Below are positions 38,157 through 63,093 of a DNA stretch of 64,000 bases, piece after piece. The notes beneath the pieces are model-generated. The model searched no databases. It was given only the letters and a program-made list of their open reading frames with translations, and was not told the origin of the DNA. The DNA comes from a virus, in the IMG/VR virus record IMGVR_UViG_3300025897_002116, positions 1 through 64,000 of that record, one strand, 5' to 3'. The translations under genes and the position numbers were made by a program. Within the stretch, counting starts at the first letter, position 1. Each line of letters starts with the position of its first letter.

Positions 38157-38445
38157 TTCTTCTAGATTTATCGCAAATTAACAAGTCGTATGGAGGTTTA
38201 TCCCCTACTCTTAATTGATGGTATTTGCAACTCCATTCATCAAGTTGTTTTTTTGTTAAATCATAATGGTTTATACCAGATTTTGATCCTCTTGCTGTCC
38301 AGTATGTAATGTTATGACCTTCATCATACAGTTTATTAATCTTATCTATATTAACCTGTATAGGGCTGGCTAAAGCATACGCTCGAAAGTCTCCTCCGTA
38401 AACGTAATCACAAATTGTTTCATCAATATCTACGTAGATGTTCAT
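38143..38445 (-). CDS. Small HAD-family phosphatase
   Basis: VDIDETI, WTARG, KPPYDLLICDK. Confidence 0.8.
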   Translation of the reverse strand: MNIYVDIDETICDYVYGGDFRAYALASPIQVNIDKINKLYDEGHNITYWTARGSKSGINHYDLTKKQLDEWSCKYHQLRVGDKPPYDLLICDKSRRIEEI

Positions 38446-40790: not shown

Positions 40791-40791
40791 C

Positions 40792-42237
40792 TTAATAACC
40801 AGTTAATTTATGCTTAATGTACTTTGAAGGTCTTTTTTTAGTCTTAATTAAATCAAATCTAGATCTAGGTTTAAATTTATCAAAAGCTTCATCTAATGTT
40901 TCAACTATATTTTTACACATAGCAGATGCAGACATTTGTGACTCATCTGATGTCACCCACTCTCTGCCTTTAAGACCTCTTTTTTCTCTATCTTCAGAAG
41001 AAAGGTTGTAAACCTTTTCTATAGCCTTAGCTACATCTTCAGGTTGACATCTATCATCGAAAATATAAGGGGTGGTTGGGGAGCCTGTAAGTGAAATATT
41101 AGATGGGAAAACCGGTTCTACCCACTCCCCACATTCTTTTACAGTACCTCTATGGTTAGAAGGAAAATCAGCGTCAAAATCTATCCACTTACCGTCTTTT
41201 TCAAATCTCATTTGATCTTGCATACCTCCGGTTACATTACCGATAATCATCTTACCAGCCATCATAGATTCAGTTAAACTTAATCCCCAACCTTCGTTAG
41301 AAGAAATTAAAACCGTAACATCTGAGATATTATACATGAGGTTCATTTGACTAGGATTAATACGGGCCTGTGAAAAATACACATTAACGTAACTTGGATC
41401 GGTTAATGCCTCTTTTACAGCTCTTAGATCAGTTCCATTATTGTCACTAACATGAGTATGCATTATAAGAGCACATTTTTTTGCTTTTTCTTCTCCAATT
41501 AAGTCACAGAAAAGTCTATACGCAAAAATTACATCAGCAGGTTTTTTTCTTTGAATATTTCTAGAATTGAAAAATACTATAAATTCAATATCGTCTCTAC
41601 CAAGAGTATTCTTTTTAAACTCTAAAAGATTTTCATATAGAGAATGCTTAGAATCTATAGGGAAAAAATCATTTTCGTTAATTCCATGAGGAACATACTT
41701 TAGTATCTTACTATCGGCTTTTTCACCTAGGACTAATCTATTAATATTGTTAGTTTGTTTTGAAATTGCCATAAGTACATCAACTGAATCATAATAGTTG
41801 ACATTATACCCTGGGGCTGGGTAGTCATCCCATATATTGAGCCAGAAGATTGGTATCTTGGACCTAATTTCCCTTTCTATTTGGAATAACCATACCCAAT
41901 ATCTTGGATCGGTAAAGATAAAAATAGCATCAGGTTTCTCTCTTTCAATTAACGCTCTCATTAACTCAGCATCTCCGTAACCATTGTTCGGCAGTACCTG
42001 TACAAGTGAATCTGTGATTCCTATTATTTTGTTTACCTCCTCTGATAGATCGTAGATTTTACCAATCTCAGGATGCTTTACAGCGGCTCCTACATTGAAC
42101 CAATTAAAGTGCTGTGCTGTACCGACTGTGAACTCTCTTGCCATTGTGGCAATTCCGGAGTTCATTCTGATATCATCACATAAAAGTAAGATCTTTTTCC
42201 GATCCTTCTTTTCGATATAACGAAACTGTTCTTTCAT
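40792..42237 (-). CDS. Glycosyltransferase family 4-like
   Basis: VPHG, RNIQRK, NEGWGLSLTES. Confidence 0.88.
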   Translation of the reverse strand: MKEQFRYIEKKDRKKILLLCDDIRMNSGIATMAREFTVGTAQHFNWFNVGAAVKHPEIGKIYDLSEEVNKIIGITDSLVQVLPNNGYGDAELMRALIEREKPDAIFIFTDPRYWVWLFQIEREIRSKIPIFWLNIWDDYPAPGYNVNYYDSVDVLMAISKQTNNINRLVLGEKADSKILKYVPHGINENDFFPIDSKHSLYENLLEFKKNTLGRDDIEFIVFFNSRNIQRKKPADVIFAYRLFCDLIGEEKAKKCALIMHTHVSDNNGTDLRAVKEALTDPSYVNVYFSQARINPSQMNLMYNISDVTVLISSNEGWGLSLTESMMAGKMIIGNVTGGMQDQMRFEKDGKWIDFDADFPSNHRGTVKECGEWVEPVFPSNISLTGSPTTPYIFDDRCQPEDVAKAIEKVYNLSSEDREKRGLKGREWVTSDESQMSASAMCKNIVETLDEAFDKFKPRSRFDLIKTKKRPSKYIKHKLTGY

Positions 42238-46614: not shown

Positions 46615-47604
46615 CTAAGTAGAGAGGTTTTTCTTGAAAATAATCTTTCTCCAATAATTATTTAATTCACTTAGTAATAAACCAGCTTCACCAAGTTCAG
46701 AACGGTTATCGGGATATCCTATTTCTTTATCATAATCAAAATCTTCTACATCTTCTATGAATTCATACATATCAGGATTAACTCTCTTTAACTTTGGAAT
46801 ATCCCTTCTCCAAAGATGTGAAGGTAATTGTGTTTGGGATTTATATAAATTATTTATATGGTCATCTGGTAGTTCGTTATCTCCTGTAAATGAATGAATC
46901 ATTTTAGTTCCCATTTGTCCTATGAGTGTTTGATAAGTGGCAAGTGAAGTATGTAGTATACCATCTTCTTTATCTAATACTAAATCAGCAGGCATATTTA
47001 TAACCTTCATACTATCAAGAAGTTCTCGTAAAGAATTAACATTAACTATATACGATTGAGCTCCTGGTGCTTCAAATCTTCTGATATGCTGTAATCTACC
47101 ATTCAAATTTATTCCTCGTATTTCGGGTGTTGCTCTACCCAACCAGAGTATATCGAATGAAAGTTTTATAATATCTTCTACCAATAGAGTGTACTCACCA
47201 TCTTGAATAGAATTAATTAATGCAGTTGTTGGTCTAGCATCATCTTCTAAAAATAAAAAATATCCTAGTGAATTTCCATTAGAATCGAATTCATTCAAAG
47301 CAATCTCATACGCCTTCTGATGAGATAATGCAACTCCAATAATATTTTTAGAAAGATTCCCTGATGGGTCTATAAATGTATCCAATCTACCAGTTTGTAT
47401 CATAGATTTGATATCAAGATCTCTACCCATTATAGCATCTACAAATTCATATTCTAAATCAGACCATTCCCAAGCTTTAGTAAATTCCTGTCTTCTATAA
47501 CTATCCTTTTCGGATATTACATAAACTTTATCTGCTCCAAAATTTTGTAAGTGGGCAATATTAGTCTTTATCGACACTCTTAATTTCCTTTGGCAAGAAT
47601 TCAA
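46615..47604 (-). CDS. Glycosyltransferase family 25-like
   Basis: YVIS....RR, FVDAIMG, GVALSH, FLEDDA, SYIV. Confidence 0.75.
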   Translation of the reverse strand: MNSCQRKLRVSIKTNIAHLQNFGADKVYVISEKDSYRRQEFTKAWEWSDLEYEFVDAIMGRDLDIKSMIQTGRLDTFIDPSGNLSKNIIGVALSHQKAYEIALNEFDSNGNSLGYFLFLEDDARPTTALINSIQDGEYTLLVEDIIKLSFDILWLGRATPEIRGINLNGRLQHIRRFEAPGAQSYIVNVNSLRELLDSMKVINMPADLVLDKEDGILHTSLATYQTLIGQMGTKMIHSFTGDNELPDDHINNLYKSQTQLPSHLWRRDIPKLKRVNPDMYEFIEDVEDFDYDKEIGYPDNRSELGEAGLLLSELNNYWRKIIFKKNLST

Positions 47605-47788
47605 CGTTTACATGTCCGCATTTAGTACAAGCAAAAACGGGAATTGGAATATAAGAGGGTTTTCCAGTTCCTGTAAGAAATCCTGATGCTTTTCTTATAA
47701 TGATATGCTGTTCAAAATAAACTCCATTGCATTCATCACACGTAATTCCTGTTGTCTGGTTAAGATCTATGTTTAGTTGTTGTTCCAT
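47561..47788 (-). CDS. Zn-ribbon protein
   Basis: CDEC ... CTKCGH. Confidence 0.7.
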   Translation of the reverse strand: MEQQLNIDLNQTTGITCDECNGVYFEQHIIIRKASGFLTGTGKPSYIPIPVFACTKCGHVNVEFLPKEIKSVDKD

Positions 47789-47794
47789 AGTTAC

Positions 47795-47974
47795 TTACTT
47801 TTTAACTATAGTCGATTTTTTAGCACGAGGCTTTCTAGGTTTTGCAGATGGTTTTTTTGTTTTTTTGATTTGTGCTGCAGCTTTGGCTTTTCGTTCAGCT
47901 GCAAACTTAGATACGACATAGATTACTAGTACAGTAGATATTAGGATTAAACTAAAAATTGCAAATAATTTCAT
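47795..47974 (-). CDS. Small TM-anchored Lys/Ala-rich protein (59 aa, not in ORF track)
   Basis: MKLFAIFSLILISTVLVIYVV-SKFAAERKAKAAAQIKKTKKPSAKPRKPRAKK. Confidence 0.6.
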   Translation of the reverse strand: MKLFAIFSLILISTVLVIYVVSKFAAERKAKAAAQIKKTKKPSAKPRKPRAKKSTIVKK

Positions 47975-48019
47975 AGGTGTTTTTTAAAATTTGATATAAA
48001 TATATATTAATTAACTAAG

Positions 48020-48490
48020 TTAGTATTTATTTTCTAAGTAGAAATAAAAATCTAGGATAGTGCCTTTAGATTCTAAGATTTCATCATCGTACTCTTTGTC
48101 GGGAATGCCGAATTTTTTACATAAGCCTTTTTTTAGTGCTTCTAATCGTTTTGATTCTTCTTTTTCAAAATCTACGAGAAGTCTTTTTCTTCTAGCCCTT
48201 GCTAGTGAGGTTTCTTCCACCCATTTAAGTTGGTCTCGGATTGAAAGTTGGAATTTTTCATTTAACTGGTGTTCTACTATTTCAGCTTCAAATTCAAATG
48301 GTGCATAATCAAAATCGCCATTCTCTATTCTATCAAGAATAGGCGCGTTTGCCGGTAAAGGTTTAGTTTTTGCCGTAAAACTTCTCCACCACATAAATCG
48401 ATCATATGGCTTTTTATAGTAATTTTTTTTAAAGTATCTTTCTAACCAAGTTAATTTATGGGTAGGACTATAAGGTAATGAAATATCCAT
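48020..48490 (-). CDS. Hypothetical protein
   Basis: 156-aa ORF (FMWWR, RIENGDF). Confidence 0.65.
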   Translation of the reverse strand: MDISLPYSPTHKLTWLERYFKKNYYKKPYDRFMWWRSFTAKTKPLPANAPILDRIENGDFDYAPFEFEAEIVEHQLNEKFQLSIRDQLKWVEETSLARARRKRLLVDFEKEESKRLEALKKGLCKKFGIPDKEYDDEILESKGTILDFYFYLENKY

Positions 48491-48504
48491 ATCTAAATAT
48501 AGTA

Positions 48505-48948
48505 TTAAATTTTTAAAAATCCAACTTTTTCAAAGAATTTCTGTCCTCTTATATTATCTTTAACGCAATAAAGTCTAATATCTTTACCTACATGATAGCA
48601 AACATAATTACAGAAATCATGGGAGTCACCGTGTATTCTCTTTTTTGAGACAAACATATTATAGAGGTAATTATTATCAAACCAAACATAGCCGAGAACA
48701 TTATTATTCTCCTTTAAAACAAACATTAAATTGTTTTTTTGAAATCTATGTTTGGCTTCTTCAACATTAAACATTCCTGCCCATTGTATTTCTGAGTTGA
48801 ATAAGTCAATGCATTTTTGGACTAGATGGAGATCATCAGGTTCTACTTGTTGAACATTTAAATTAGGTCTAAGTGTAGGTGCTTTAAAAACCTCTTTATC
48901 GGCAATGTACCAAATTTTTTTTGTAGGATCTTCAACAAGTGGAAACAT
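48505..48948 (-). CDS. GNAT-fold acetyltransferase-like protein
   Basis: LGYVW, YNMFVS, N..GQKFFEKVGF. Confidence 0.7.
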   Translation of the reverse strand: MFPLVEDPTKKIWYIADKEVFKAPTLRPNLNVQQVEPDDLHLVQKCIDLFNSEIQWAGMFNVEEAKHRFQKNNLMFVLKENNNVLGYVWFDNNYLYNMFVSKKRIHGDSHDFCNYVCYHVGKDIRLYCVKDNIRGQKFFEKVGFLKI

Positions 48949-49121
48949 TACTTAGTCTTTTGTAGTATTTCAAGAGCGCGTTGTATTTCTTCAGTTGTGT
49001 ATTCTAAGAGAATTTGATAAGCTCGTCGATCATCTACTTTTCGTTTAAAGTCTTTTGATTCGCTTTGATGACTTGAAAGTCTATTTTGTCTATCATGCCA
49101 GGCTGTAATTGTATCACTCAT
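48948..49121 (-). CDS. Small hypothetical protein (57 aa, not in ORF track)
   Basis: MSDTITAWHDRQ...; TAATG coupling to the GNAT gene; promoter variant at 49122-49177. Confidence 0.55.
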   Translation of the reverse strand: MSDTITAWHDRQNRLSSHQSESKDFKRKVDDRRAYQILLEYTTEEIQRALEILQKTK

Positions 49122-49178
49122 AACTTTCTATTTTTATATTTACTTAAAGATAGTATAATTTAACCAGAAAACCAACTA

Positions 49179-49679
49179 TTACAAGTTTTTATTATGAACT
49201 AAAATACCATTAGCAAAAAAATTACTATTGTCTTCTACATGAAAAATATAAGTCTGTACTGGTTCTCTCTCCTGTTCTTCTAAGTCTACAAGTTTTACAT
49301 TCTCTAGTTCCAAATCAATTAAACTATCTCCTACTTTAAGTTGATTAATTTCGGAGGTAAAAGTGTATCTTGCTGATGTTAGGTTTGGTTTATAAGATGC
49401 TAGGTGTTTACCCTCAACATAGTATGGATGATCAAATGTAGAAATTATTTCAATATCATTTTCTAATATCAATTTGATTAAGTCATTATGTATAGAGGTA
49501 GAAACTTCTATTACTTCTTTAACTTCTATTTCTTGAGTTTTTTCGTTATAAGAGAGAACAAAATCACCTATTCTAATGTCCTCTATGTACTTAGTATAGT
49601 AATCCTCCATGGTAACCTCTGTACCTGCTACAAAGCAAAGTTTATTGGACATTTGTTTACTATTTAAAAATTTTTCCAT
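49179..49679 (-). CDS. Stand-alone Hint (intein-like) domain protein
   Basis: CFVAGTEV, STFDHP, NFFANGILVHN-KNL. Confidence 0.9.
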   Translation of the reverse strand: MEKFLNSKQMSNKLCFVAGTEVTMEDYYTKYIEDIRIGDFVLSYNEKTQEIEVKEVIEVSTSIHNDLIKLILENDIEIISTFDHPYYVEGKHLASYKPNLTSARYTFTSEINQLKVGDSLIDLELENVKLVDLEEQEREPVQTYIFHVEDNSNFFANGILVHNKNL

Positions 49680-49761
49680 TTATATCTATTAAATTTTTGA
49701 AATATTTACACTTGCTTTAAGGAAATAAAACAGTCTGCACTATACTTTTCATATGCTACTT

Positions 49762-50904
49762 TCAAATTAAACTTTTTGCTTTCTTTTTTAAATCTTTATT
49801 TTTTACTTGTATTACTATTTGGTATTTAGTTCCTTCTTCTACTTTATCATATGTCATATGCTGCCAAGGTTTATAAATATATACATCTCCTTGTTTAATC
49901 TTACAAACAGCGCATCCTCCTTCTTTACTTCGTTCCCAACTTTCTTCTGCAATAAGGTTACCTCCTTTGAAATTATCATTTAAGTATATATCAATACTCA
50001 TACATAGTTGTTCAGGGGCAGATAAAGGCATTCCTTTAGTAGTCATAACATGTCTATCGTATTTATCTCCTTCTTTGTATCTGAATAGACTGATATCTAA
50101 ATCATTAAAATTAACATTATTAAACTCTTTAAATATTTTCTCACTAATGATACTATTTAATCTTTGATTAGATTTAATTTTTGGTACATATCCAAATCCT
50201 CTAGAATGCACTACTCCTTTTACTAAAGCTGAAGTTTTATGATCTTTTAAATCGTTAATATTATCTTCTAGAAGTTCATTACAAAGATCTTGAGGTATTA
50301 TATTAGTTAATTTACGAAAAAGAGGAGTGCAAACAAACTCTTTACCTACATAATAAGTCCAACATACTTCTTTATAGTCTCTCATAAATTTAGGATAAGA
50401 TTTGAGAGAGTCTTTCTTGAAATGATATATCTTTTTGTTTAAAAGTTTATCTTTTTTTAATCTAGCATATTCATATATCGATAAACAACAGTTTTGGTTA
50501 GCTATAGATTTAGCTGCTTCTTCAAACTTACCGTAACTTCTATCTTTATATGTATCCATAAAGATACCATCATACTTAATGCCTTTCTCTGCTAATGTAG
50601 GTATTACTTCAGTCCAGTCACCAAATAAGATAGTAACATTTGACTTACCTATAGCCCATTCTAACGCTTTTTCATAAATCTGAGGGTTTATTTCTATACA
50701 GGTGTAGTGGTTTGCAAGTTCTGACATTTTATTTGCCGAGAATCCCATTCCGAATCCAACATCAAGAACGTTGCCTCCATTTTCACAAACTACGTTTGAA
50801 TACATATCCATCAGAGATTTGGATATAGAATCCATTACAATGGAACGATTATTATTTTTTAGGTAAATTGTTTTACCTGTAAATACTACCTCTTTATCTC
50901 TCAT
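49762..50904 (-). CDS. Fusion: GAMT/Rmt2-like SAM methyltransferase plus 2OG-Fe(II) oxygenase-like domain
   Basis: GGNVLDVGFGMG, CIEINP, DGIFMDTY; C-terminal RYKEGD.Y.RH, YLNDNFKGG, H...V..G.KY. Confidence 0.75.
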   Translation of the reverse strand: MRDKEVVFTGKTIYLKNNNRSIVMDSISKSLMDMYSNVVCENGGNVLDVGFGMGFSANKMSELANHYTCIEINPQIYEKALEWAIGKSNVTILFGDWTEVIPTLAEKGIKYDGIFMDTYKDRSYGKFEEAAKSIANQNCCLSIYEYARLKKDKLLNKKIYHFKKDSLKSYPKFMRDYKEVCWTYYVGKEFVCTPLFRKLTNIIPQDLCNELLEDNINDLKDHKTSALVKGVVHSRGFGYVPKIKSNQRLNSIISEKIFKEFNNVNFNDLDISLFRYKEGDKYDRHVMTTKGMPLSAPEQLCMSIDIYLNDNFKGGNLIAEESWERSKEGGCAVCKIKQGDVYIYKPWQHMTYDKVEEGTKYQIVIQVKNKDLKKKAKSLI

Positions 50905-51425
50905 ATTAAACTTGTATCTAATTTTAATCGCGTTTTTGATATTCCTATTTGGAATATTTCAATATTATGTGGGAGTTCAATTACGAATTTTATAATATTA
51001 GAAACTTCTGAGAATTTTAGTTTTTGATTTTTTACTAACTTAGCACTCTCTAATGTATTAGGGTATACATTTATAATACGAACTTCCTTTTCTATATCTC
51101 GTAATTCAAATGTTTTTTGTTCTAAATGTTTTTTATCCTCAATATACTTTTGATTAGGGCCTCCAAATATTAATGCAGATGTTAGTATATTAATTATAGT
51201 TTTAGGTTTATATTTCCACTCTTTATAAACAAGTTCAAATAAATCAGATTGTAATTTATCTTTATATTCATTATTAATAAATACATCATACTCGTTTATC
51301 ACATTTGAAAAGTAATGTGCATACGAATCAGTAGTACTTAGGGAATCAGCTTTATGACCATTTGAAGAGAGATGATCTTTTATATTCTTTCCCAATCCAT
51401 AATTTCCTGTAACTAATATTTTCAT
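50901..51425 (-). CDS. Short-chain dehydrogenase/reductase-like protein
   Basis: ILVTG.YGLG, DVFINN, IINI, Y...K. Confidence 0.7.
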   Translation of the reverse strand: MKILVTGNYGLGKNIKDHLSSNGHKADSLSTTDSYAHYFSNVINEYDVFINNEYKDKLQSDLFELVYKEWKYKPKTIINILTSALIFGGPNQKYIEDKKHLEQKTFELRDIEKEVRIINVYPNTLESAKLVKNQKLKFSEVSNIIKFVIELPHNIEIFQIGISKTRLKLDTSLI

Positions 51426-51437
51426 ACCATAAAGGTA

Positions 51438-51932
51438 TTACAGTAGTGGGTTTTTTAAATCTAAATGTTCGTAAAAGTAGAACCCGATTAAACTCCATCG
51501 ATTTCCCTTAGTAACTTCTAAGACTTCGTGTTCTAATGAATGTTTAAAAGTGTAAAGGGAACCTGTATTTTTTGGTAGTATCTGGTATTTCGGTTGGTGT
51601 ATAACAAAATCACCTCCTTCGTAATCTTCATTTAAAGAAGCTCCTATATTATAAATCTGATTATCATAATAGATATCTCTATGTCTACCGAACTTGTCAC
51701 CAACGGAATAGTTAAACATATGAATAGCATCTAAACTTTTAACAACTTTAATTCCAGTTGTTTCAGTAAAGTAAGAATCCATTCTATCAAAAATCCACCG
51801 TATATATTGATTCCACCCAATAGAATAAAAATTATAACTAATAGGACGTGGGTATTCATTCCTCTCTGTCTTTTGTAACTTAGCCGAAAGTTTTATAATA
51901 GCATCACATTCTTGTTTATTAAATGAAATCAT
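51438..51932 (-). CDS. 2OG-Fe(II) oxygenase (prolyl-hydroxylase-like)
   Basis: Y..GD.F.RHRD, LNEDYEGGDF, HEV.EVTKG.RWSL. Confidence 0.88.
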   Translation of the reverse strand: MISFNKQECDAIIKLSAKLQKTERNEYPRPISYNFYSIGWNQYIRWIFDRMDSYFTETTGIKVVKSLDAIHMFNYSVGDKFGRHRDIYYDNQIYNIGASLNEDYEGGDFVIHQPKYQILPKNTGSLYTFKHSLEHEVLEVTKGNRWSLIGFYFYEHLDLKNPLL

Positions 51933-52075
51933 CAAAGATGCTTAGCACTAAATAATTCAAAAAATTTAGTTACAGTTCGTCTAATTTGAGATTTTTCAGT
52001 ATCAGTCAATACTTGTACAGTTCGATTTTGAACATTAGTATTTGATACTTTTTTGTATAATGTTGGTTTTTTCAT
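51932..52075 (-). CDS. Small basic 47-aa peptide (not in ORF track)
   Basis: MKKPTLYKKVSNTNVQNRTVQVLTDTEKSQIRRTVTKFFELFSAKHL; TGATG coupling to the oxygenase. Confidence 0.65.
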   Translation of the reverse strand: MKKPTLYKKVSNTNVQNRTVQVLTDTEKSQIRRTVTKFFELFSAKHL

Positions 52076-52083
52076 ACTATTAA

Positions 52084-54402
52084 TTATTTATTGTGCACTA
52101 ATATTCCGTTAGCGTAAAAATTTCTATTATCTTCAACGGAAAAAATATAAGTTTGAGTTGGTACAACTGGTAGTTCCGTTATACTCAAAATAGTAGTTTC
52201 AATATCACTATCTAATGTGTATACCGTATCACCAACTTTTATCTGAGAAACTTCTAACGGTAAGTCATATCTTTCGTTTGTTAACTTAGGAGCATACGAT
52301 GCAAGTTCTAAATTATTTACATAGAATGGGTGGTCATGTGTAGATATAACTTCTGTTTGATTTGAAAAAGTATATTTAACCAAATCATCATGTACTGGTG
52401 ATTCAGTATCTAATACATTCTTATCTTGATGTATTCCAGTTTTTTCATTATACGTTAAGACTGTATCACCAACTACTACGTCTTCTATGTTTTTTTCATC
52501 TCCATTGGATAACATAATTGAAGTTCCTGCAATAAAACAATACCTATTATGTACCAATACCTTATTTGCAAAAAAGTTATGATTTACTTCTACTGTCTTT
52601 ACATTGTAAACAGCAGTTGGTTCTGTTAGTATTTCGGTTGATAATATTGTTAATTCTGAACCATCTTGTTTAAATACTTTGAATCCTTCTTCTGCTTTTG
52701 TTGTAGTAAGATTGTATACACCTGTAGTGTAATCTGGGTCCATAGATACCCATCCTTTTTCTTTTGAATATAATGGATGATCTAACGTTGATTCTATAAT
52801 ACTGTTATCTTCAAATGTGTATTTTACAGTTGTATTTACCAATTTGGATCCGATTCCTTTAACTAAGTGCGGCTCTACTACATTAGTAGCAAAATTAAAA
52901 GACAAAACAGAATCTCCTATTTTAATATCTTCTACTAATTTATACTCGCCATTTGCTAAGGTAATTTCAGTTCCTGCTACAAAACAAGGAGCGTTGTGTG
53001 ATACGATGGCTTGAAAAGAAGTAGACCCACTTATGATATATGTATCAGTATCTTCAACATCTAACTCAACAATTTTCAAACCAGTATCGGATGTTACATA
53101 AAAGTTAACCTCGTCTATATCAATAATATTACCGTTTAAATCAAAGAAATAATCATCATCCGGGTTTAGATATTGGGTAGGTTTATATGCTGTTTGATTT
53201 GAAGAAGAATTATAGACTAACCACTGTTTACCGGTGCCGGTGAATTTAGAATCTGAATCGATTACAACTTCCATAAGTGCATTATAAGTTGAATCTCTTT
53301 CTACTTTAAATACAACTTGTGATGATGTTATGAATGATCCAGATGGTAATTCGTTACCTTCAAAATTCCAAGCTAGTAATGTGGAATCGGATTCAACTTG
53401 TGGTGAACCAGAAATAAAATACGATGATACAAAGTCTCCGACTTCCGTATCTCCTATTTCGGTGAAAGTACCGTCTACCATTTGTATTTTATGAGTAGAC
53501 AATATACCAGATGATCCTGCTTTTATAAAGTTTGTAGCAAACTCATAATAATGAATATCTGATAGCTTATTAATGTACCTTGTTGTGTCCACTTCAGATG
53601 ATATGTCAGCAGGTAATTCAAATATAGAACTTATCTTATAACTATGTAGTGTTACTACACTTAAATCACTCCCATACACTATTTGAAAAGATCTTACAGA
53701 TGTTATGTGGCCATTATCATCGGTATTAGACGTATTATAGTGATATTGGAGGATTAATTTATCATCTCCTTTAATTTCCTCTACAAATGAATTCCATCTA
53801 TCTTCGTTTGACTCATTTTCTACTGTAGAACCTATTTTATAGAAACTAATAGGGTTATATACTTCGGTTATATCCTTTATAGCAACATCTGGAATATTAG
53901 ATGGGTTAATAGTTGATTCTAGTGTATTTGTAATTGAATCAGATCCAGAGTAATAATGTGAAACTACAAAACTACCGCTATCAGTTGAATCACTTGAATC
54001 AAATAAACTAAGTAGCTCTAATGTGCTTTTACAGTATACACTATCAAATAAAGCAGATTCATCATATGCTAACCTTAATATAAATTTATCATCTGAATCT
54101 TCTATACTTTCTGGGTATATTGTGTTTAAATCCTCTGGATGTAGAACTATATTATCAGCAAGTGATGGAATACTTGTGGTTATAGCAGTAGATATCGCAG
54201 AAACTATCTCATTGTGAAAAACTGGTTTGTAAGTAATATGTAACTCAGCTATGTCATTTGTAGTAAGGATTTCAGCAAATTCAGTAAAATTAAAATTTGA
54301 CAATTCATTACCGACTATACTAGTATCTGTGTTTATTTCTAATAACCTAAGATTTCCATTACTGTCTTTTGCAAAATCTGCAGAAAAAAATGTGCCTTTC
54401 AT
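52084..54402 (-). CDS. Circularly permuted ATP-grasp-like domain fused to three tandem Hint domains
   Basis: N-terminal DF..D.NG.LRLLEINT, then PDVAIK, LILQY, SVR; Hints at aa 299-470, 473-619 and 622-771, each ending HN. Confidence 0.8.
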   Translation of the reverse strand: MKGTFFSADFAKDSNGNLRLLEINTDTSIVGNELSNFNFTEFAEILTTNDIAELHITYKPVFHNEIVSAISTAITTSIPSLADNIVLHPEDLNTIYPESIEDSDDKFILRLAYDESALFDSVYCKSTLELLSLFDSSDSTDSGSFVVSHYYSGSDSITNTLESTINPSNIPDVAIKDITEVYNPISFYKIGSTVENESNEDRWNSFVEEIKGDDKLILQYHYNTSNTDDNGHITSVRSFQIVYGSDLSVVTLHSYKISSIFELPADISSEVDTTRYINKLSDIHYYEFATNFIKAGSSGILSTHKIQMVDGTFTEIGDTEVGDFVSSYFISGSPQVESDSTLLAWNFEGNELPSGSFITSSQVVFKVERDSTYNALMEVVIDSDSKFTGTGKQWLVYNSSSNQTAYKPTQYLNPDDDYFFDLNGNIIDIDEVNFYVTSDTGLKIVELDVEDTDTYIISGSTSFQAIVSHNAPCFVAGTEITLANGEYKLVEDIKIGDSVLSFNFATNVVEPHLVKGIGSKLVNTTVKYTFEDNSIIESTLDHPLYSKEKGWVSMDPDYTTGVYNLTTTKAEEGFKVFKQDGSELTILSTEILTEPTAVYNVKTVEVNHNFFANKVLVHNRYCFIAGTSIMLSNGDEKNIEDVVVGDTVLTYNEKTGIHQDKNVLDTESPVHDDLVKYTFSNQTEVISTHDHPFYVNNLELASYAPKLTNERYDLPLEVSQIKVGDTVYTLDSDIETTILSITELPVVPTQTYIFSVEDNRNFYANGILVHNK

Positions 54403-54419
54403 GTAGTAAGTATTTTAAA

Positions 54420-54427
54420 ATAAATAG
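54420..54427 (-). promoter_or_regulatory. Class II (putative late) promoter motif CTATTTAT
   Basis: Same octamer sits upstream of genes at 1468, 3820, 7366, 14626(+), 28999, 30974, 46580 and 57273. Confidence 0.65.
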
Positions 54428-54574
54428 AAGTATTTTCAGTAATACCTACTGATCTGTTAGTCTTTTTTACCATAGTCACCGTATAAGCATTCTACTCCCC
54501 GCTATACAGAAATTGTATCTTACTTAGCCCTACTGTGCGGTATGGGTACTTAAGGGTAACTATCTTTAATTAAT

Positions 54575-54742
54575 TTATTTGTTTTCCTCTACGGAAGCGG
54601 CACGGTAAGCTGTAATCAACTTTTTTATTTCACCTGCGAATTTGCGAGCTCTCTGTTGAGACGCTTTAGTAGTGCCGGAATTGTTTTCTGCTAATCCGTT
54701 AAAATTAGACTGTATTTCTTCAAATAACTCTTGTTTGTTCAT
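54575..54742 (-). CDS. Histone H1-like (Hc1-type, Bacteroidota) small protein (55 aa, not in ORF track)
   Basis: TKASQQRARKFAGEIKKLITAYRAASV resembles the KAA..RARK....I.K....YRK.S motif. Confidence 0.7.
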   Translation of the reverse strand: MNKQELFEEIQSNFNGLAENNSGTTKASQQRARKFAGEIKKLITAYRAASVEENK

Positions 54743-54761
54743 AATTTTTAATTTAATTGTT

Positions 54762-56405
54762 TTAACCTAATAGCATATTTGGATCTATACTATCTTCTTT
54801 TTTATTTAACTCTGGTGTAATAGAAACTACTGCTTCTGTTATTAACATCGTACCAGCTACCGATGCGGCATTTTCTAGTGCCAGTCTTGCGACTTTGGTC
54901 GGATCAATAATACCTGCTGAGAACATATTTACTTTCTTATTCTCTCTAGGATTATACCCTAACCAATTATCTTTAGAGTTTCGTAACTCTTTATCAATAC
55001 TGTTTATACTTTCGGCAGTAAATCCAGCATTCTGTAGTATCTTCTTAAATGGTGCCACACAGGAATTAAGTACTATCTGGTATCCTTTTCGTTCATCAGT
55101 AGAATCAATTGAATCTAATCTAGTTTGTAGCATTGTAGCTGCATTTAGTAATGCAATTCCTCCTCCAGGTAATATACCTTCTTCTAAAGCTGCTTTTGTA
55201 GCATGTAGTGCATCGTCAACTCTATCTTTCTTTTCTTTCATTTCAACCTCTGTATGACCTCCTACATGTACAATTGCTACTCCTCCAATAAATTTAGCTA
55301 AACGGTCTTGAAGGGTTTCTTTTTCGTAGGGTGAAACTGTATCGTCAATCTGGTGTTTTATCTCTTCAATACGAGCTGAGATTTTTTCTTCTGTTCCTTT
55401 AGCGTCAATAAGCGTGGTGGTGTCTTTACCCACAGTAACCTTATTAGCTTTACCAAGCCAGGTAGCATCAAATTTATCTAATCTCATTCCTTTTTCAGTA
55501 GATACTACTTGACCTCCAGTCATTATTGCAATATCCTCTAATACAGCTTTTCTTCTTTCTCCAAACTCAGGAGCTTTAACCGCCACTACATTTAGAATTC
55601 CTCTCATTTTATTAACAACAAGTGTCGACAAAGCTTCTCCATCTATATCTTCAGCAATTACTAATAATGATTTACTCTGTTGGGAGGCACCTTCTAAGAT
55701 AGGTAGTAACTCTTTTACCTGTGTTAGACGTTTATCTGTAATTAAAATTAACGGATCACGAAGAACAGCTGTCATTGTGGTATTATCGGTAACAAAATAA
55801 GGAGATTTATAACCTCTATCGAATTGCATTCCTTCGACAGTTTCTAAATATGTTTCTCCTGTTTTTGATTCCTCAATTGTCACAACTCCGTCTCTACCTA
55901 CCTTATCCATGGCAGTGGAAATTAATTCGCCTACTTCCGTATCATTATTAGCTGAAATGGTAGCGACTTGTTTTAGCTGCTCTTCATCCGTTATTTCTTT
56001 AGAGTAATCTTTCTGTAGGAATTCTACGACTTCTTTTACTGCTTTATCAATTCCTCTTTTAATATCTACTGCATTTGAACCTGCATCTAGAGAATTGATA
56101 CCTTCATCAAGAATGGATTGTGCAAGTAGAGTAGAAGTTGTAGTTCCGTCGCCGGCTTGTTCTCCTGTTTTAATAGAAGCTTGTTTTACAATTTGTGCTC
56201 CTAAATTTTCAACTTTATCTTTTAATTCAATAGATTTAGCAACTGTTACTCCGTCTTTAGTAGATATTGGATTTCCCATCTCTTGTTCTAAAATAACATT
56301 ACGACCTGAGGGTCCTAGTGTTGCGGTGACTGCATTTGCTAATTTATCTACTCCGTCTGCAAGTTTATTTCTTGCTTCTTTTGAAAAAATAATTTCTTTA
56401 TTCAT
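54762..56405 (-). CDS. groEL: Chaperonin GroEL
   Basis: [41 protein letters not shown]. Confidence 0.97.
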
Positions 56406-56406
56406 T

Positions 56407-56709
56407 TTATGATTCTTTTACAACTGCTAAAATTTCTCTGTCTTGTGCTATATAGAACTCTTCACCTTCAAAGTCAATTCGAAGTGTTCCTATTTTTGGA
56501 ACAAGTACTATGTCTCCTACCTTGCAGGATCGGACAGTAATTAATTGATTATGTTCGGACATTCGGCCAGGACCGACTGCTAGTACTTCTCCCATTTCTG
56601 GTTTTTCTTTTCCTAAATCTGGGATTACTATTGAACCGTAAGTTTGTTCTCCTTCATCTATTGGTTTTAGAAGAACGCGGTCATTTGCTGGTGATAACTT
56701 TTTTAACAT
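56407..56709 (-). CDS. groES: Co-chaperonin GroES
   Basis: PANDRVL, IVIPD, GEVLAVGPG, KVGDIVL. Confidence 0.95.
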   Translation of the reverse strand: MLKKLSPANDRVLLKPIDEGEQTYGSIVIPDLGKEKPEMGEVLAVGPGRMSEHNQLITVRSCKVGDIVLVPKIGTLRIDFEGEEFYIAQDREILAVVKES

Positions 56710-56759
56710 ATATATAACGTTTTAGTTTATTAATATAAGAAATAAAATTTTAAGATCAA

Positions 56760-57254
56760 ACTCGAGAGCGGAAATAATTAAGCTATTTTCAAAGTTTTTA
56801 ACTCTGAACCTTTAGCGAAAGGGACTGTGATTTTAAGTAAACCATTTTCAAACTCAGCATTTGCTTTGCTTAAATTAAATTTACTATCAATCTTCCAACC
56901 AAGATTAAAAGATCGTTTAGCTATACCCTTATGTAGGTACTGACTAAGGTCATCTTCTTTTGGTCGGGTGTAGTTTATTCTAATTATATTACCCTGAATT
57001 TGTATCTCAACTTCTTCTTTTGAGATTCCTGTACAAGCAATATCTAGACCTAGACCGTTGTCTTTCTCGTAAATATCTACAGGATGGGGGAGTTTGGATG
57101 CTGCCAGTGGTGCGTATGCACTGGCGTCTTGGAAAAAATTCTTTACTAGAATGTCGAACGGATTGCGTTCGTAAAATAATGTACTCATATCATTTAAAAT
57201 TTGTGATGCCCTAGGGTCATCGGTTAAAAAAAAAATATAAAATCGCTCTCGAGT
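56760..57254. repeat. 11-bp perfect inverted repeat bracketing hsp20
   Basis: actcgagagcg (56760-56770) and cgctctcgagt (57244-57254). Confidence 0.75.
56778..57188 (-). CDS. Small heat-shock protein (Hsp20)
   Basis: HPVDIYE, YLHKGIAKRSF, AEFENGLLKI. Confidence 0.92.
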   Translation of the reverse strand: MSTLFYERNPFDILVKNFFQDASAYAPLAASKLPHPVDIYEKDNGLGLDIACTGISKEEVEIQIQGNIIRINYTRPKEDDLSQYLHKGIAKRSFNLGWKIDSKFNLSKANAEFENGLLKITVPFAKGSELKTLKIA

Positions 57255-59784: not shown

Positions 59785-60045
59785 TTACATTTCTCCGTAA
59801 AGATCAAACTTTTCGGGTTCGGGCTCTTCTATCAATATTTCATTTTCCTTTATAGCAAATAACTTACCATTTAAAGGCTCTAGTCTATAATGACCTTTGA
59901 ATTGTGTTTTTCGCATATAAGCAGTTAGTGTTGCTACAAGGCCTGTGATAACTGTTGCTTTGTCTATTGTTAACTCCCAGCTATCACCAGGAGGAACTCT
60001 TTTAGCTATAAGTTCATTTTGCTCTTCTATTATTTTCTCAGTCAT
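59785..60045 (-). CDS. Hypothetical protein
   Basis: 86-aa ORF (IAKRVPPGD.W). Confidence 0.65.
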   Translation of the reverse strand: MTEKIIEEQNELIAKRVPPGDSWELTIDKATVITGLVATLTAYMRKTQFKGHYRLEPLNGKLFAIKENEILIEEPEPEKFDLYGEM

Positions 60046-61604
60046 TATTTTCCTTTAATATAATCTAAAATTTCGTCTTGAATATCAGGTTCTATATAAT
60101 CTTGAGATCCTGGGTTAGAGTTTTGTGGGGATAGTACCCATCCTTCTTTTTTAGCTAGTTCTAAAACACCAGAAACTTCACTATTAGAATTAGCTGTATC
60201 ACCATTCATTGACCCCAAAAGCACAGGGGCTAATTTGGTTTCTGGAATAGAATCCCACCACTCTTTTAATGTAGGGAAGGCTTCAAGAAAGTTTTTATTT
60301 CTTCTTATATCGTATTGAGTATAGAAGGATTTCCAATCTCTTTCTCTACTTTCAAAAGAGGAAGTATGTTTATGTCCAGTCTTGATTTCTCTAATATAGG
60401 CAATAAGTCTTACTATACCATCTTTCTCCATCTCTAAGAGATACTGAGTATTCAATTCTAGCCATTTTTCGATGTGATCTGCACGTTCTTTTCTAATATA
60501 TTCCGGTAAGGTTACTATAGACTGGAAGCTTGGAAATCTTAAAATATTAAAAGAGCAGATTGGAAAATGATCTCCATATTTTTGTTTCAATTTTATTACT
60601 TCGTCCATAAATTCTGTTATAGAGAATAGGCACAAAGCATTAATTGTCATCATAACATTTAAAGATTTGATATTAGCTTCATCACATACTCTGTACATAT
60701 TAGATAACCACTTATCCCAAATTAAATTATACCGTATATACTCAGACTGCAATCCTGTAGATTCATTAGATGTATAAAGATGAAATGATTTGATATTATG
60801 ACTTGCTTTAATTAACTCATCTAAGAGTCTATCTTTCTGCCCTAAATTAGAATTAACTGCAAACTCAACTTCACACTCTTTATGTGTTTCCCACCACTTC
60901 ATTAGTTTCCAAAAATCTGGGGACATGGTAGGTTCACCGCCTGTCACTCTTAATTCACGTAAACTAAATTGTAGCTCGGCTTCCCACCATTTATAAAAAG
61001 CTTCTACATAAGGATTATTTTCATTTTTCCTGCCGTATGGCATGGCATGACCACCATCGTGTTGGAATGCTACCGCACCATCGGATACCAGGTTTTGATA
61101 CGGGCCGAATTGTTTGATATCTTTTTGCCAAGTAGTTGAAAATGAAGCATTGCAGTAAGAACAAGCAAAATTACAATTAGGGTCAAATGCAATTTCTAAA
61201 GTCTTTAAGTCAACATCTTCTTGCCATCCAAATTTTGACTTAGCATCTTTAAGTTCCTCATCGGTATAAATTACAGATTTGTAAACTCTATCTGATATTT
61301 TATCTTCCCCTAGGTCTTCAATCTTCCAGCAATATTCACACTCTTTTGGTCTTTCTCCTTCGAGCATCTGCTTTCGGATAAGCTTCTTATAACTAGTGTT
61401 GTGTATTGCTTTATAACTTTGGGCTACTTCCTCTAAAGGTATCTTATGTGCGGGTGGGTGATGGCAGCTTGCAGTAGTACCATTTCCTAGCCATATAGTA
61501 GCGTTATACCATTTGGCTCCGCAGAAAGCAGGGGATACAGAGTTTATTGCTCTATCTCTGTATTTCTGGTAGCTTTCGTTTCCTTTTTTTGCGAATATTC
61601 CCAT
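60045..61604 (-). CDS. Radical SAM protein with N-terminal Cys-rich (twitch/SPASM-like) segment
   Basis: CNFACSYC and TGGEP; N-terminal FC..KW, SCHH, CEYCW. Confidence 0.88.
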   Translation of the reverse strand: MGIFAKKGNESYQKYRDRAINSVSPAFCGAKWYNATIWLGNGTTASCHHPPAHKIPLEEVAQSYKAIHNTSYKKLIRKQMLEGERPKECEYCWKIEDLGEDKISDRVYKSVIYTDEELKDAKSKFGWQEDVDLKTLEIAFDPNCNFACSYCNASFSTTWQKDIKQFGPYQNLVSDGAVAFQHDGGHAMPYGRKNENNPYVEAFYKWWEAELQFSLRELRVTGGEPTMSPDFWKLMKWWETHKECEVEFAVNSNLGQKDRLLDELIKASHNIKSFHLYTSNESTGLQSEYIRYNLIWDKWLSNMYRVCDEANIKSLNVMMTINALCLFSITEFMDEVIKLKQKYGDHFPICSFNILRFPSFQSIVTLPEYIRKERADHIEKWLELNTQYLLEMEKDGIVRLIAYIREIKTGHKHTSSFESRERDWKSFYTQYDIRRNKNFLEAFPTLKEWWDSIPETKLAPVLLGSMNGDTANSNSEVSGVLELAKKEGWVLSPQNSNPGSQDYIEPDIQDEILDYIKGK

Positions 61605-61634
61605 ATTATGTTACTATCCCCCTCATGTAAATTT

Positions 61635-62543
61635 TTACTGTCTTAAAGTTTTGGCAATTCTGAACTCTGGTGAAGTAAAGAATTCTGGTATCAGCATTGA
61701 ATGCGTTGCTCTAATTGGATTAATATCAATTCCTCCTCTACGGGTGTATAAACAAGATACCATTAACTGCTCAGGTTGAAAAGCATCATATAGGTGTCTA
61801 AATATCATTTCACATATTTCTTCATGAAAATGTGATACAGTTCTATGAGAAACTATATATTTAGCGATTGATCCGGATGATGGTATTTTCTTTCCTATAA
61901 TTTTTATGTAAACATCTCCCCAATCCGGTTGATTTGTAACTCTACAGTTTGATCGAAGTAAATTTGAGGATAATTTTATTTCACTTGATTCTTCAGCAAC
62001 TTCTTCTACTGTTAGTTGAGAAGCATCGGATTGAAAAGCGGTAAAGTCTATTTGATCTAAATCTGTTGCATCTTTTAAATCTACGTACCCTTCAAAAGAA
62101 AGCGGGTGACCATCATCATTAGATGTATAAAAAGAAACAGTTGTATCAGTTTCTAATAATTCATCTAGATCCCTTTTGACTCTTGCTTCAATTCCAGAAA
62201 TACAATCTGATGCGGTCTTGCCGATTTTAGTCATATTAAGTGAATTCAAGTAAAGTTTAATTGACTTAGACTCTACGTGATTATATGAATCAGCAGGGCA
62301 AACTATTTTAAGCATTCCGGCTACGGGTTGACCTTTTTCGGTTATTGCTGAGACTTCATATGCATTCCAGGTATCTACCCCAACGAACTCTTCTCCGGTT
62401 AAGCTATATGCTTCTCGATTAAGGTATCGAGGAATTTTCACTAATAGGGATGCATCGTATTGATCTGAGTAACCATCACCGCCTACTTTACCTAAATGTC
62501 TGTTTGCTAGACTTACTACTTCTTCTTGATTCTTATCTGCCAT
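61635..62543 (-). CDS. queF: 7-cyano-7-deazaguanine reductase (bimodular type)
   Basis: DTWNAYEVS, VESKSIKLYLNS, LRSNCRVTNQPDWG, FHE, YTRRGGIDINP. Confidence 0.93.
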   Translation of the reverse strand: MADKNQEEVVSLANRHLGKVGGDGYSDQYDASLLVKIPRYLNREAYSLTGEEFVGVDTWNAYEVSAITEKGQPVAGMLKIVCPADSYNHVESKSIKLYLNSLNMTKIGKTASDCISGIEARVKRDLDELLETDTTVSFYTSNDDGHPLSFEGYVDLKDATDLDQIDFTAFQSDASQLTVEEVAEESSEIKLSSNLLRSNCRVTNQPDWGDVYIKIIGKKIPSSGSIAKYIVSHRTVSHFHEEICEMIFRHLYDAFQPEQLMVSCLYTRRGGIDINPIRATHSMLIPEFFTSPEFRIAKTLRQ

Positions 62544-62547
62544 AATT

Positions 62548-63093
62548 TTATTTAATAAATTCCAATATTTGCTCTACTCTTTGCATAGGAGAACCAGTAA
62601 CTTTTATCATATTACTGTTTATACTAGCTAATTGATTTCTAAATTCTTTATCTATATCTCTTCTCCACTCTTCATTAATACTCCTAACTCCATCATCAAC
62701 TGATTTGAACTCTATAGGAAAGTAAACATAATGTGAATATTCATTTTTAATTCTTGACCAAGTATCATCAACAAACGCTACGGTTGCAGCGCTTGCTTTA
62801 TTCATATACTTAGTATATACTACTAAATCCATATAACATCGATCTAACACACAGTTATACGGTTTAAGTAATGCTTCTAAATGAAAACTAGAGATTGCTA
62901 ATTGAGTTTCCGAAGTTCCTTGTTCATTAATAGGAAACCCAAACTCTTTGACCGTACGAGTAGATTCATTTATAAACTCGTATTTAGGTAATTTACTTTT
63001 CAGTAATTCATATACTGTAGTCTTACCGGTACTGCTTGCTCCTATTAATGCTATTTTCTTTACCATGTAACCTTTTTTAAAAACATAACCCAC
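62548..63093 (-). CDS. P-loop (d)NMP kinase-like protein
   Basis: IGASSTGKTT, E..R, DRC.MD, DDGVR. Confidence 0.8.
   Translation of the reverse strand: MGYVFKKGYMVKKIALIGASSTGKTTVYELLKSKLPKYEFINESTRTVKEFGFPINEQGTSETQLAISSFHLEALLKPYNCVLDRCYMDLVVYTKYMNKASAATVAFVDDTWSRIKNEYSHYVYFPIEFKSVDDGVRSINEEWRRDIDKEFRNQLASINSNMIKVTGSPMQRVEQILEFIK

Follow-up and report, generated by a model that had tools for sequence, protein, structure and literature searches.

A viral gene pair encoding a predicted ATP-grasp–Hint protein and a small partner: a candidate two-subunit amide ligase with a self-removing tail

Some ATP-grasp enzymes, as in the LysX/LysW, RimK/S6 and graspetide pairs, are encoded beside a small-protein gene. 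Enzymes of this superfamily join a carboxylate to an amine by way of an acyl phosphate (PMC12568646). BIL domains, which share the Hint fold, lack the +1 nucleophile that inteins possess and give mainly cleavage rather than splicing products (PMC7664689). Here we describe a locus that brings these elements together in a 64,000-nucleotide (nt) stretch of viral DNA (positions 1 to 64,000 of the IMG/VR virus record IMGVR_UViG_3300025897_002116; hereafter ‘the window’, by which we mean this whole stretch). Six open reading frames (ORFs) run head to tail on its minus strand from 54402 to 49179: the first encodes a 772-aa protein in which a predicted circularly permuted ATP-grasp domain is followed by three Hint domains, and the second encodes a 47-aa basic protein, the partner. 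The first two genes alone form the conserved core, which we interpret, with middling confidence, as a two-gene phage module for a two-subunit ATP-dependent amide ligase with a self-removing tail. A preliminary description, made from the letters of this DNA, had proposed that the six genes may build a modified peptide or decorate a late or virion protein; its domain reading was right for the ATP-grasp, the three Hints, the small peptide, the oxygenase and the methyltransferase, and the small protein is part of the system, but a ribosomally synthesised and post-translationally modified peptide (RiPP) core and linker-derived products are less favoured here than a ligase with a BIL tail. Each of the six ORFs was recovered on the minus strand at the coordinates it gave, and the observation as a whole is confirmed. 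The core features are as follows.

52084–54402, minus strand: large gene, 772 aa, first in the run; predicted circularly permuted ATP-grasp domain plus three Hints
53515–54402, minus strand: aa 1–296, predicted ATP-grasp ligase domain, circularly permuted, of the glutathione synthetase (GS)/GspS/YgiC type, with D9, E22 and N24 in the first two strands
52993–53514, minus strand: Hint0, aa 297–470, degenerate Hint/BIL domain without the N-terminal Cys, terminal His-Asn kept (N470)
52987–52992, minus strand: Ala-Pro linker, aa 471–472, between Hint0 and Hint1, variable among relatives
52546–52986, minus strand: Hint1, aa 473–619, intact BIL-type domain with C473, T539/D541/H542, H618-N619 and Arg at +1; best PT-HINT stretch aa 486–619
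52540–52545, minus strand: Arg-Tyr linker, aa 620–621, variable among relatives
52090–52539, minus strand: Hint2, aa 622–771, intact BIL-type domain with C622, H691 and HN at 770–771, then one Lys and the stop
51932–52075, minus strand: 47-aa basic partner, 8-nt gap after the stop of the large gene; N-terminal strand with Tyr-Lys, C-terminal amphipathic helix ending KHL

The first 296 residues of the large protein are predicted to share fold and strand order with YgiC/YjfC, the synthetase domain of GspS, eukaryotic glutathione synthetase and Cp1B. Modelled alone, this segment reached a predicted local distance difference test score (pLDDT) of 95.4, and residues 1–470 reached a pLDDT of 94.2 with a predicted template-modelling score of 0.89. 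When the 1–296 model was compared with 48,161 chains, the top 11 were all ligases of the GS/GspS/YgiC/Cp1B type (Z 7.6–9.9): glutathione synthetase and its relatives, YgiC, GspS, trypanothione synthetase, two Methylobacillus structural-genomics proteins and the E-64 ligase Cp1B. Their alignments span 194–236 residues and begin at residue 1–4 (5oeu: Z 9.9, root-mean-square deviation (rmsd) 4.9, 221 residues aligned; YgiC 7uka: Z 9.6, rmsd 4.1, 203 residues aligned). Foldseek returned the same group with E-values of 7e-6 to 1.5e-4, YgiC standing at E 7e-6 and a probability of 1.00. Classical non-permuted ATP-grasps (TTLL, ArgX/LysX, RimK, Ddl, PurD) scored Z 4.7–6.2 and aligned only from residue ~44–52, which agrees with a permutation that places the last, metal-binding strands first; eukaryotic glutathione synthetase is itself a circular permutation of the ATP-grasp fold.

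Among the conserved residues of the domain, E22, T25 and D120 show no variation in any of the three large-protein alignments; D9 is invariant in two and kept in at least 90% of the third, N24 is invariant in one and kept in at least 90% of the other two, and D102, R110, Y113, Y123, K176 and R237 are invariant or at least 90% kept. Conserved acidic and Asn residues in the first two strands are a further likeness to the YgiC/GspS/GS group, and the Asp…Glu-x-Asn pattern formed by D9, E22 and N24 resembles what we take to be the metal site of Ddl; these residues are presumably Mg/ATP ligands, an assignment made by motif and not by superposition. Unlike the YgiC/GspS/GS enzymes, to which it has no detectable sequence similarity, the phage domain is much smaller (296 aa), is fused to Hints, requires or at any rate always goes with a partner of 24–53 aa, and is essentially restricted to viruses. 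We consider the model-based assignment to the ATP-grasp fold good, although residues 1–296 fall into none of the curated families Pfam ATP-grasp, GSP_synth and CP_ATPgrasp. The R2K/CDC123 ATP-grasp clade, known from phages, was considered as another home for the domain and rejected: its families are annotated as DUF4343 or misannotated as membrane proteins (PMC4431377), and none matched here. The words Hint, intein and circular are absent from that article.

The three Hints that had been claimed to follow the ATP-grasp domain are all recovered, two by Pfam and the third by profile and fold. Pfam places Hints at aa 472–619 and 622–771, with whole-protein E-values of 1.3e-14 for PT-HINT, 1.1e-10 for Intein_splicing and 2.3e-10 for Hint. 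Hint0 emerges from a profile of 30 diverse relatives, which matches the KlbA intein over positions 292–450 (E 3e-7), and from the model, in which aa 296–470 superimpose on the Clostridium thermocellum BIL 2lwy with Z 19.2 and an rmsd of 1.6 Å over 138 of 138 residues. BIL2 of the Tetrahymena BUBL1 locus is also among the closest solved folds (Z 18.7); taken together, 2lwy and the BUBL1 BIL2 structures (6tmm/6y75) share the Hint fold with Hint0 at Z 18.4–19.2. N470 is invariant and H469 at least 90% kept among 110 sequences down to 21% identity; the Thr-x-x-His motif was not seen in Hint0.

Hint1 and Hint2 have the marks of BIL domains, namely Cys1, the block-B His, the terminal HN, a non-nucleophilic +1 residue and no endonuclease insert. 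Across 14 relatives the columns that hold Cys1, the block-B His and the terminal HN do not vary, with the exception of N771 (at least 90%), and the residues at +1 are Ala after Hint0, R620 after Hint1, K772 after Hint2 and K164 after a free Hint encoded by the last gene of the run. By fold and family, by Cys1/Thr-x-x-His/HN and by the missing +1 nucleophile, we assign Hint1, Hint2 and the free Hint to the BIL class and predict from sequence that they cleave themselves, cleavage rather than splicing being what PMC7664689 leads one to expect of BILs. Class 1 inteins, which have Cys, Ser or Thr at +1 and sit inside a conserved host protein that is re-ligated, are ruled out by the Ala, Arg and Lys residues at +1 and by a C-terminal site with just one Lys beyond it. 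The phage Hints differ from known BILs in being a C-terminal tandem array with spacers of 0–8 residues and no cargo after the last domain (usually one Lys), in that the first copy, Hint0, lacks the N-terminal half of the chemistry, and in being attached to an enzyme instead of a secreted or variable protein. A comparison with the Pretoxin-HINT of polymorphic toxins is also apt, since Pfam PT-HINT is among the best matches and distant relatives carry a Hint before a highly variable C-terminal piece; unlike those toxins, however, the phage proteins have no toxin, trafficking or secretion domain and no immunity gene, and their variable pieces are tails of 1–60 aa.

The number of Hints and what lies between them vary. 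Counted from length classes, because the hidden Markov model merged neighbouring domains, the extra Hints per locus number none in 1, one in 17, two in 29 and three in 5 of 52 dereplicated relatives. HNK is the protein end in 32 of these 52, and their spacers from HN to the next Cys are AP (20 counts), none (10), SP (4), R, RA and RF (3 each) and about forty other strings of up to 8 residues. Such variation makes the spacers look like junction remnants and unlikely as products, and the suggestion that the AP and RY linkers are targets of the neighbouring oxygenase and methyltransferase is not borne out, the linkers not being conserved across the 52. Among relatives without intact Hints, the invariant HN is followed by one of two types of tail: short and often basic (PAPPPKL, KVKIEPPK, K), or Cys-rich, about 25–60 residues long and highly variable. 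In three loci (L088, L089 and L108), a Cys-rich tail of about 25–30 residues lies between a Hint0 of the putatively C-cleaving type and an intact Cys1 Hint, the layout of a cargo flanked by BILs. A tail end of K or K-hydrophobic is shared by 48 of 57 distinct proteins in the window’s subfamily. One Cys-rich subfamily shows it in 47 of its 60 members, all 60 having Lys within the last four residues, and the other Cys-rich (third) subfamily in only 3 of 56. The Cys-rich and basic tails, the BIL-flanked layout and the K ends keep alive a reading in which the part after Hint0 is a released cargo. The C-terminal ~60 residues after HN in two relatives (P0219 and P0235) may resemble the self-cleaving chaperone domain of phage tail fibres.

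The second gene had been described as encoding a basic peptide, and with 10 K/R against 3 D/E the product is indeed basic. We collected 81 related viral loci of the window’s subfamily and left one out, its large gene running off the contig: in 80 of the 80 complete loci, an ORF of 38–60 aa begins no more than 120 nt from the stop of the large gene. Fifty-five distinct partner sequences, including that of the window, align end to end; Y7, K8 and H46 are kept in at least 90% of 53 partner sequences, and the C-terminus is conserved as KH[LSTM]. BLASTP of the window’s partner against that of L001 gave no alignment; their kinship emerges solely from the multiple alignment and from the position they have in common. 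Two distant subfamilies, 21–25% identical to the window’s large protein, also carry a partner ORF. In the Cys-tail subfamily it encodes 41–56 aa ending KHL, or KHL plus 1–2 residues, in all 57 distinct rows listed; in the third subfamily (L166–L243) it encodes 24–44 aa in 55 of 56 rows and is essentially one helix ending (A/S/E/V)NS. Most of these third-subfamily partners are 24–30 aa long (pattern …IGxLIxxxNS), and the majority would drop out of any ORF list with a 30-aa floor.

A model of the complex of aa 1–470 with ATP and the partner scored 0.90, as compared to 0.50 for the best of three controls, with at least 93% contact agreement between runs and a partner pLDDT of at least 88. Among 157 solved complexes, 116 attained the mark applied to such scores, and among 215 mismatched pairs, 2 did; these counts are a rough guide here, our model having used alignments made by us and a ligand. 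Of the 47 partner residues, 43 contact the large protein in the model: residues 5–11 pair with the Hint0 strand 431–439, and the C-terminal helix rests on residues 8, 10, 18, 20, 23, 118–137 and the even-numbered residues of 234–242. D9, E22, N24, K176 and R237 lie outside the listed partner contacts, whereas their strand neighbours 8, 10, 18, 20, 23 and 234–242 lie inside. We read the model as showing a partner that would act as a clamp-like subunit on the back of the catalytic sheet and the first Hint, rather than as a substrate in the active site. The assignment of the peptide to the ATP-grasp protein, already made in the preliminary description, is strengthened by the adjacency in 80 of 80 loci and by the complex model; its use as a RiPP core is not, a clamp subunit fitting better with a peptide modelled as bound over 43 of 47 residues away from the catalytic residues. 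The likeness to LysX/LysW, RimK/S6 and graspetide pairs extends from the gene arrangement to the predicted tight binding, helix included, but LysX/ArgX and RimK are non-permuted (Z 5.0–5.9 to the phage domain), and the phage partner has no acidic tail, no Zn finger and no conserved Thr/Ser/Lys-Asp/Glu core as LysW and graspetide partners do. Two candidate classes for the partner were set aside. A graspetide-type precursor is at odds with the L060 partner, which is without Asp and Glu, with the want of any invariant acidic column in the 53 sequences and with a Z of 5.0 for RimK-type folds. A LysW-type carrier is at odds with a partner that has no Cys pairs and ends in K-H-L/S/T/M, LysW combining a Zn-finger body with an acidic tail whose C-terminal residue is Glu.

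Taking folds, conserved residues, adjacency and predicted binding as the starting point, we propose the following course for cleavage, ligation, substrate and tailoring. The 772-aa product would consist of a permuted ATP-grasp domain rigidly joined to Hint0, and the 47-aa protein would clamp the two, its C-terminal helix covering the rear of the ATP-grasp sheet while its N-terminal strand extends the Hint0 sheet. Hint1 would cut itself off by an N–S acyl shift at C473 and Asn cyclisation at N619, and Hint2 likewise at C622 and N771; Hint0, capable of the C-terminal step only, would cut after N470; AP and RY would be junction remnants, not products. In the mature enzyme, a carboxylate would be phosphorylated by ATP and then joined to an amine, as in the nearest structural relatives. 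The oxygenase, the methyltransferase and the 174-aa protein encoded downstream would be co-inherited accessory enzymes, probably acting on the same peptide or metabolite.

These downstream genes, and a motif in front of the run, make up the remaining features.

54420–54427, minus strand: CTATTTAT motif, 18 nt 5′ of the ATG of the large gene, candidate phage promoter element
51438–51935, minus strand: 165-aa prolyl 4-hydroxylase (P4H)-type 2-oxoglutarate (2OG)-Fe(II) oxygenase, start overlapping the TGA of the 47-aa gene; PF13640 at E 5.6e-9, 37.3 bits against a cutoff of 27
50901–51425, minus strand: 174-aa protein, 12-nt gap to the 165-aa gene (from coordinates); possibly a short Rossmann protein resembling short-chain dehydrogenases/reductases (SDRs), an Atlas lead only
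49762–50904, minus strand: 380-aa fusion, ATGA overlap with the 174-aa gene; N-terminal class I methyltransferase nearest GAMT, C-terminal weak 2OG-like part
49179–49679, minus strand: 166-aa free Hint, a Hint2 paralogue, 82-nt gap to the 380-aa gene (from coordinates); 46% identity to Hint2, PT-HINT at 1.8e-12

Both stop/start overlaps reported for the run, at 51932 and 50901, are seen in the sequence. The oxygenase call holds, its PF13640 match being above the curated cutoff; HxD and the distal His are visible in the 165-aa sequence, and no second copy of this oxygenase was found in the window by tblastn at E <= 0.001. The SDR call for the 174-aa protein stands as a lead only: the nearest Atlas clusters are viral, some with adh_short in 15–56% of their members, and the protein has an N-terminal TGxxGxG-like string, but neither Pfam nor PDB gives a sequence match (best PDB SDR at E 2.2). 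The proposed methyltransferase–2OG fusion likewise splits. Its first 190 residues are a genuine methyltransferase: over aa 32–120 they match four GAMTs, its best solved relatives, with E-values between 6e-10 and 9e-10, and COMT is the next family at E 3.5e-3; the C-terminal 2OG-like part is weak (E 8e-4 to the neighbouring oxygenase), and its tblastn matches overlap 2OG genes. As to the GAMT/Rmt2 type that had been named, GAMT is nearest over the matched region, which we take to be the core that binds S-adenosylmethionine (SAM), but the match does not reach the substrate-binding part. In the 2OG-like part itself (49762–50154, minus strand), no Asp aligns with the HxD of the oxygenase, and this part may be inactive or altered. 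The free Hint is present as claimed (Pfam). Its 14-aa leader (49638–49679, minus strand) aligns with the C-terminal block of a preceding Hint, FLNSKQMSNKLC as compared to FANKVLVHNRYC, and looks like the scar left by duplication of an internal Hint unit.

To ask how constant this company is, we took the 52 dereplicated loci and counted the genes lying up to about 4 kb from the large gene. A P4H-type oxygenase is a neighbour in 45 of the 52 (92 copies) and directly follows the peptide gene in 19; a SET-domain gene (PF00856, E 7e-11, ~144 aa) is found in 25 and directly follows in 17. GAMT-like methyltransferases occur in 10 loci and the 174-aa protein in 6; none of the 52 has a free Hint within the DNA examined. 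The window itself has no SET gene, which follows the partner ORF in L002–L026, L078 and others; radical SAM, carbamoyltransferase and PhoH genes also recur near relatives, and the two distant subfamilies have largely similar neighbours. For the oxygenase, the 174-aa protein and the methyltransferase, the closest homologues (42%, 40% and 62%, respectively) come from the loci of the closest large-gene relatives. There (L002–L007, L022, L023), the oxygenase gene and then the 174-aa gene precede the large gene and the peptide gene, with SET and methyltransferase genes usually following; in the window, all three tailoring genes come after the peptide. The operon that had been predicted to co-occur in relatives does so as a kept pair of large gene and micro-ORF, with recurring homologues of the three tailoring genes, but not as a fixed unit, given the counts for the methyltransferase, the 174-aa protein and the free Hint. 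This pattern suits a co-travelling cassette and likewise a 2OG-rich island of accessory genes, and is suggestive of a functional tie to the tailoring enzymes.

The CTATTTAT motif is not enriched in the window (9 copies, as compared to 11.5 expected). Eight of the nine lie on the coding strand (1468, 3820, 7366, 28999, 30974, 46580, 54420 and 57273, minus strand), all of them in short spacers; an ATG follows 2–44 nt downstream of seven, the copy at 57273 having none in the 45 nt inspected. Two of the starts so preceded belong to a gp25-like baseplate gene and an endolysin-like gene, so that motif copies are present, as had been stated, both before the run and before baseplate and lysis genes. 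The placement suits a phage promoter element, a function that we infer from position. The ~170-nt intergenic stretch 5′ of the large gene appears by eye to be higher in G+C than its surroundings at 54430–54570; no Rfam family was found there or, at gathering thresholds, anywhere in the window. A terminator scan of 47500–55000 gave no minus-strand terminator-like site and two plus-strand sites, about the chance level.

What, then, does the module act on? One alternative to a clamped ligase takes the 47-aa protein itself as a RiPP-like substrate or carrier: the ATP-grasp domain would either activate the carboxylate at its C-terminus (…KHL) or carry out a ligation at its conserved Lys, much as RimK, TTL, LysX/LysW or YgiC work on peptide ends, and the oxygenase, the methyltransferase (SET in relatives) and a GNAT would tailor it. 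The universal adjacency, the strong predicted binding, the near-invariance of Y7, K8 and H46 and the KH[LSTM] end all suit this, as do the 19 and 17 of 52 loci in which the next gene is a P4H-type oxygenase or a SET gene, both protein-modifying classes. The nearest fold relatives, YgiC and YjfC, are moreover reported to ligate peptide C-termini to spermidine, according to the title of a reference cited in PMC12568646. The substrate role sits badly, however, with a model that buries 43 of 47 residues and leaves the catalytic residues outside the listed contacts, with the want of a hypervariable core and with a third-subfamily partner of 24–30 aa that is essentially the helix alone. The L060 partner, lacking Asp and Glu, excludes side-chain graspetide chemistry at that locus, and there is no acidic tail of the LysW type; we hold this alternative to be doubtful. 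A different possibility is that the product is the part after Hint0, freed by Asn cyclisation in Hint0 and then modified or cyclised by the ATP-grasp domain, its place being taken at the present locus by BILs that leave remnants (AP, RY, K) or none. The hypervariable tails of distant relatives, with about six to ten Cys directly after the invariant HN, are what such a scheme would lead one to expect, and the tails between Hint0 and an intact Hint in L088, L089 and L108, the K/K-hydrophobic ends of two subfamilies (48/57 and 47/60) and the radical SAM and 2OG genes recurring nearby agree with it. On the other hand, the short variable spacers of the window’s subfamily, with 10 junctions lacking any, speak against a defined tail product at this locus; the six-Cys pattern of one subfamily is conserved like that of a small domain and not of a free peptide, the K-end rule fails in the third subfamily, 52 of 56 members having another end, and the cleavage of the tail is itself a prediction. 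We judge this reading to be rather improbable. A broader form of the idea, which we regard as unlikely, would make the family a new virus-encoded ribosomal peptide-making machine, with enzyme and cargo on one polypeptide: a half-disabled Hint would be the leader protease that frees the amino end of the cargo, a permuted ATP-grasp held by a micro-protein would activate the carboxyl end, Cys-rich or short basic tails would be cyclised or ligated, and tandem BILs would provide an alternative thioester activation of the same junction.

Two further readings place the chemistry in the Hints. If Hint1 conjugates through its thioester in the manner of Hedgehog or BUBL, the new C-terminus of the ATP-grasp–Hint0 body would be passed to an amine or hydroxyl of a host or virion target. 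Intact Cys1/HN Hints under purifying selection and the closeness of the BUBL1 BIL2 fold to Hint0 (Z 18.7) agree with this, and the upstream motif shared with baseplate and lysis gene starts would suit late expression. But relatives without an intact Hint keep the ATP-grasp domain, Hint0 and the partner, so that the thioester cannot be the core function, and the HN of Hint0 would itself cut the body off the thioester; conjugation is, in our view, very unlikely. The spacers, too, might be products: a cut after N470 together with a thioester at C473 would release an activated Ala-Pro, and likewise Arg-Tyr, possibly as diketopiperazines tailored by the oxygenase and the methyltransferase. The geometry (HN|AP|C and HN|RY|C) is right, AP is the commonest first spacer (20 counts), and a methyltransferase nearest GAMT and a P4H-type oxygenase are at hand. 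Spacers of 0–8 residues with dozens of unique strings nevertheless make poor products, the methyltransferase is found in 10 of 52 loci only, its GAMT similarity is limited to aa 33–120, taken as the SAM-binding core, and the yield would be one dipeptide per 772-aa protein, so that we give this proposal almost no credence.

The ligase with a self-removing tail, which we prefer, has its own difficulties, and the following points weigh against it. No Pfam family matches residues 1–470 at E <= 0.01; searching PDB sequences with the 30-relative profile retrieves Hint proteins only, residues 1–296 falling into no ATP-grasp family; and the Z of 8–10 for the ATP-grasp fold is moderately above the background quoted for the tool. 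The complex model was built on unpaired alignments of our making, one control reached 0.50, and the near-invariant polar residues Y7, K8 and H46 suit a reactive as well as a structural role. Hint0 lacks the block-B His and has Asp or Thr at the position of the block-F His, which makes even its C-terminal cleavage putative. If the Hints are simply discarded, the conservation of their catalytic residues in 14 relatives and the presence of 1–3 extra Hints in 51 of 52 relatives need another reason. The order and content of the tailoring genes vary among relatives, and with 92 2OG oxygenase copies in 52 loci, the adjacency may partly reflect an accessory-gene island. The RNA evidence comes down to one 284-nt overlap at the gene start (54217–54500) and a poor 40-nt match, all of the runs compared being contigs. 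Three DNA runs showed no joint that skips a Hint.

This is a large family, essentially confined to viruses. A word-based search yielded 1,055 proteins at E <= 0.001 and a full scan 266 clusters at 50% identity; relatives of the three subfamilies are encoded by 108, 199 and 83 IMG/VR stretches, and species-representative genomes gave a single relative, on a 2.8-kb contig of a Cyanobium metagenome-assembled genome. One 211-kb viral contig carries two divergent copies of the large gene (L171 and L177) with different Cys-rich tails. Against 50,697 phage records, from which those near the window’s own genome may be absent, the DNA of the region had no match, and at the protein level only the Hint part was matched (Vibrio and Ruminococcus phages), with residues 1–470 unmatched. 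We found no published description of the ATP-grasp–Hint design in a search that left most subscription journals outside. Near-identical DNA was found in marine and estuary metagenome runs dated 2014, 2017 and 2024.

The window comes from a 72,952-base record with an estimated completeness of 44%, and the minus strand carries nearly all of its genes. Products recognised by Pfam include a gp25-like baseplate protein, GroEL/GroES, Hsp20, a family-A DNA polymerase, thymidylate synthase, NeuB and many glycosyltransferases. The polymerase shares 68% identity with its counterpart in Flavobacterium phage vB_FspM_immuto, so that the Bacteroidota phage supposed in the preliminary description is a reasonable guess for the origin. 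Directly upstream of the cassette, after the GroEL, GroES and Hsp20 genes (54762–57188, minus strand), lies a gene for a 55-aa histone H1-like Hc1 protein (54575–54742, minus strand; PF07432, E 4e-6). Elsewhere on the minus strand, 31158–42237 holds a sugar island with NeuB, cytidylyltransferase, UDP-glucose dehydrogenase, epimerase and several glycosyltransferase genes, and 60045–63993 a second cluster with radical SAM, QueF-like, AAA_28 and formyltransferase genes.

Common among viral metagenomes from aquatic sites and nearly missing from cellular genomes, the module includes an obligate partner of 24–53 aa that gene callers may miss. It unites two chemistries that activate peptide ends, the acyl phosphates of ATP-grasp enzymes and the thioester/succinimide of Hint domains. 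The tandem, cargo-free BIL arrays and the Hint that would be restricted to C-terminal cleavage could serve as natural self-removing tags, and the identity of the product would show what these phages make or modify in infection.

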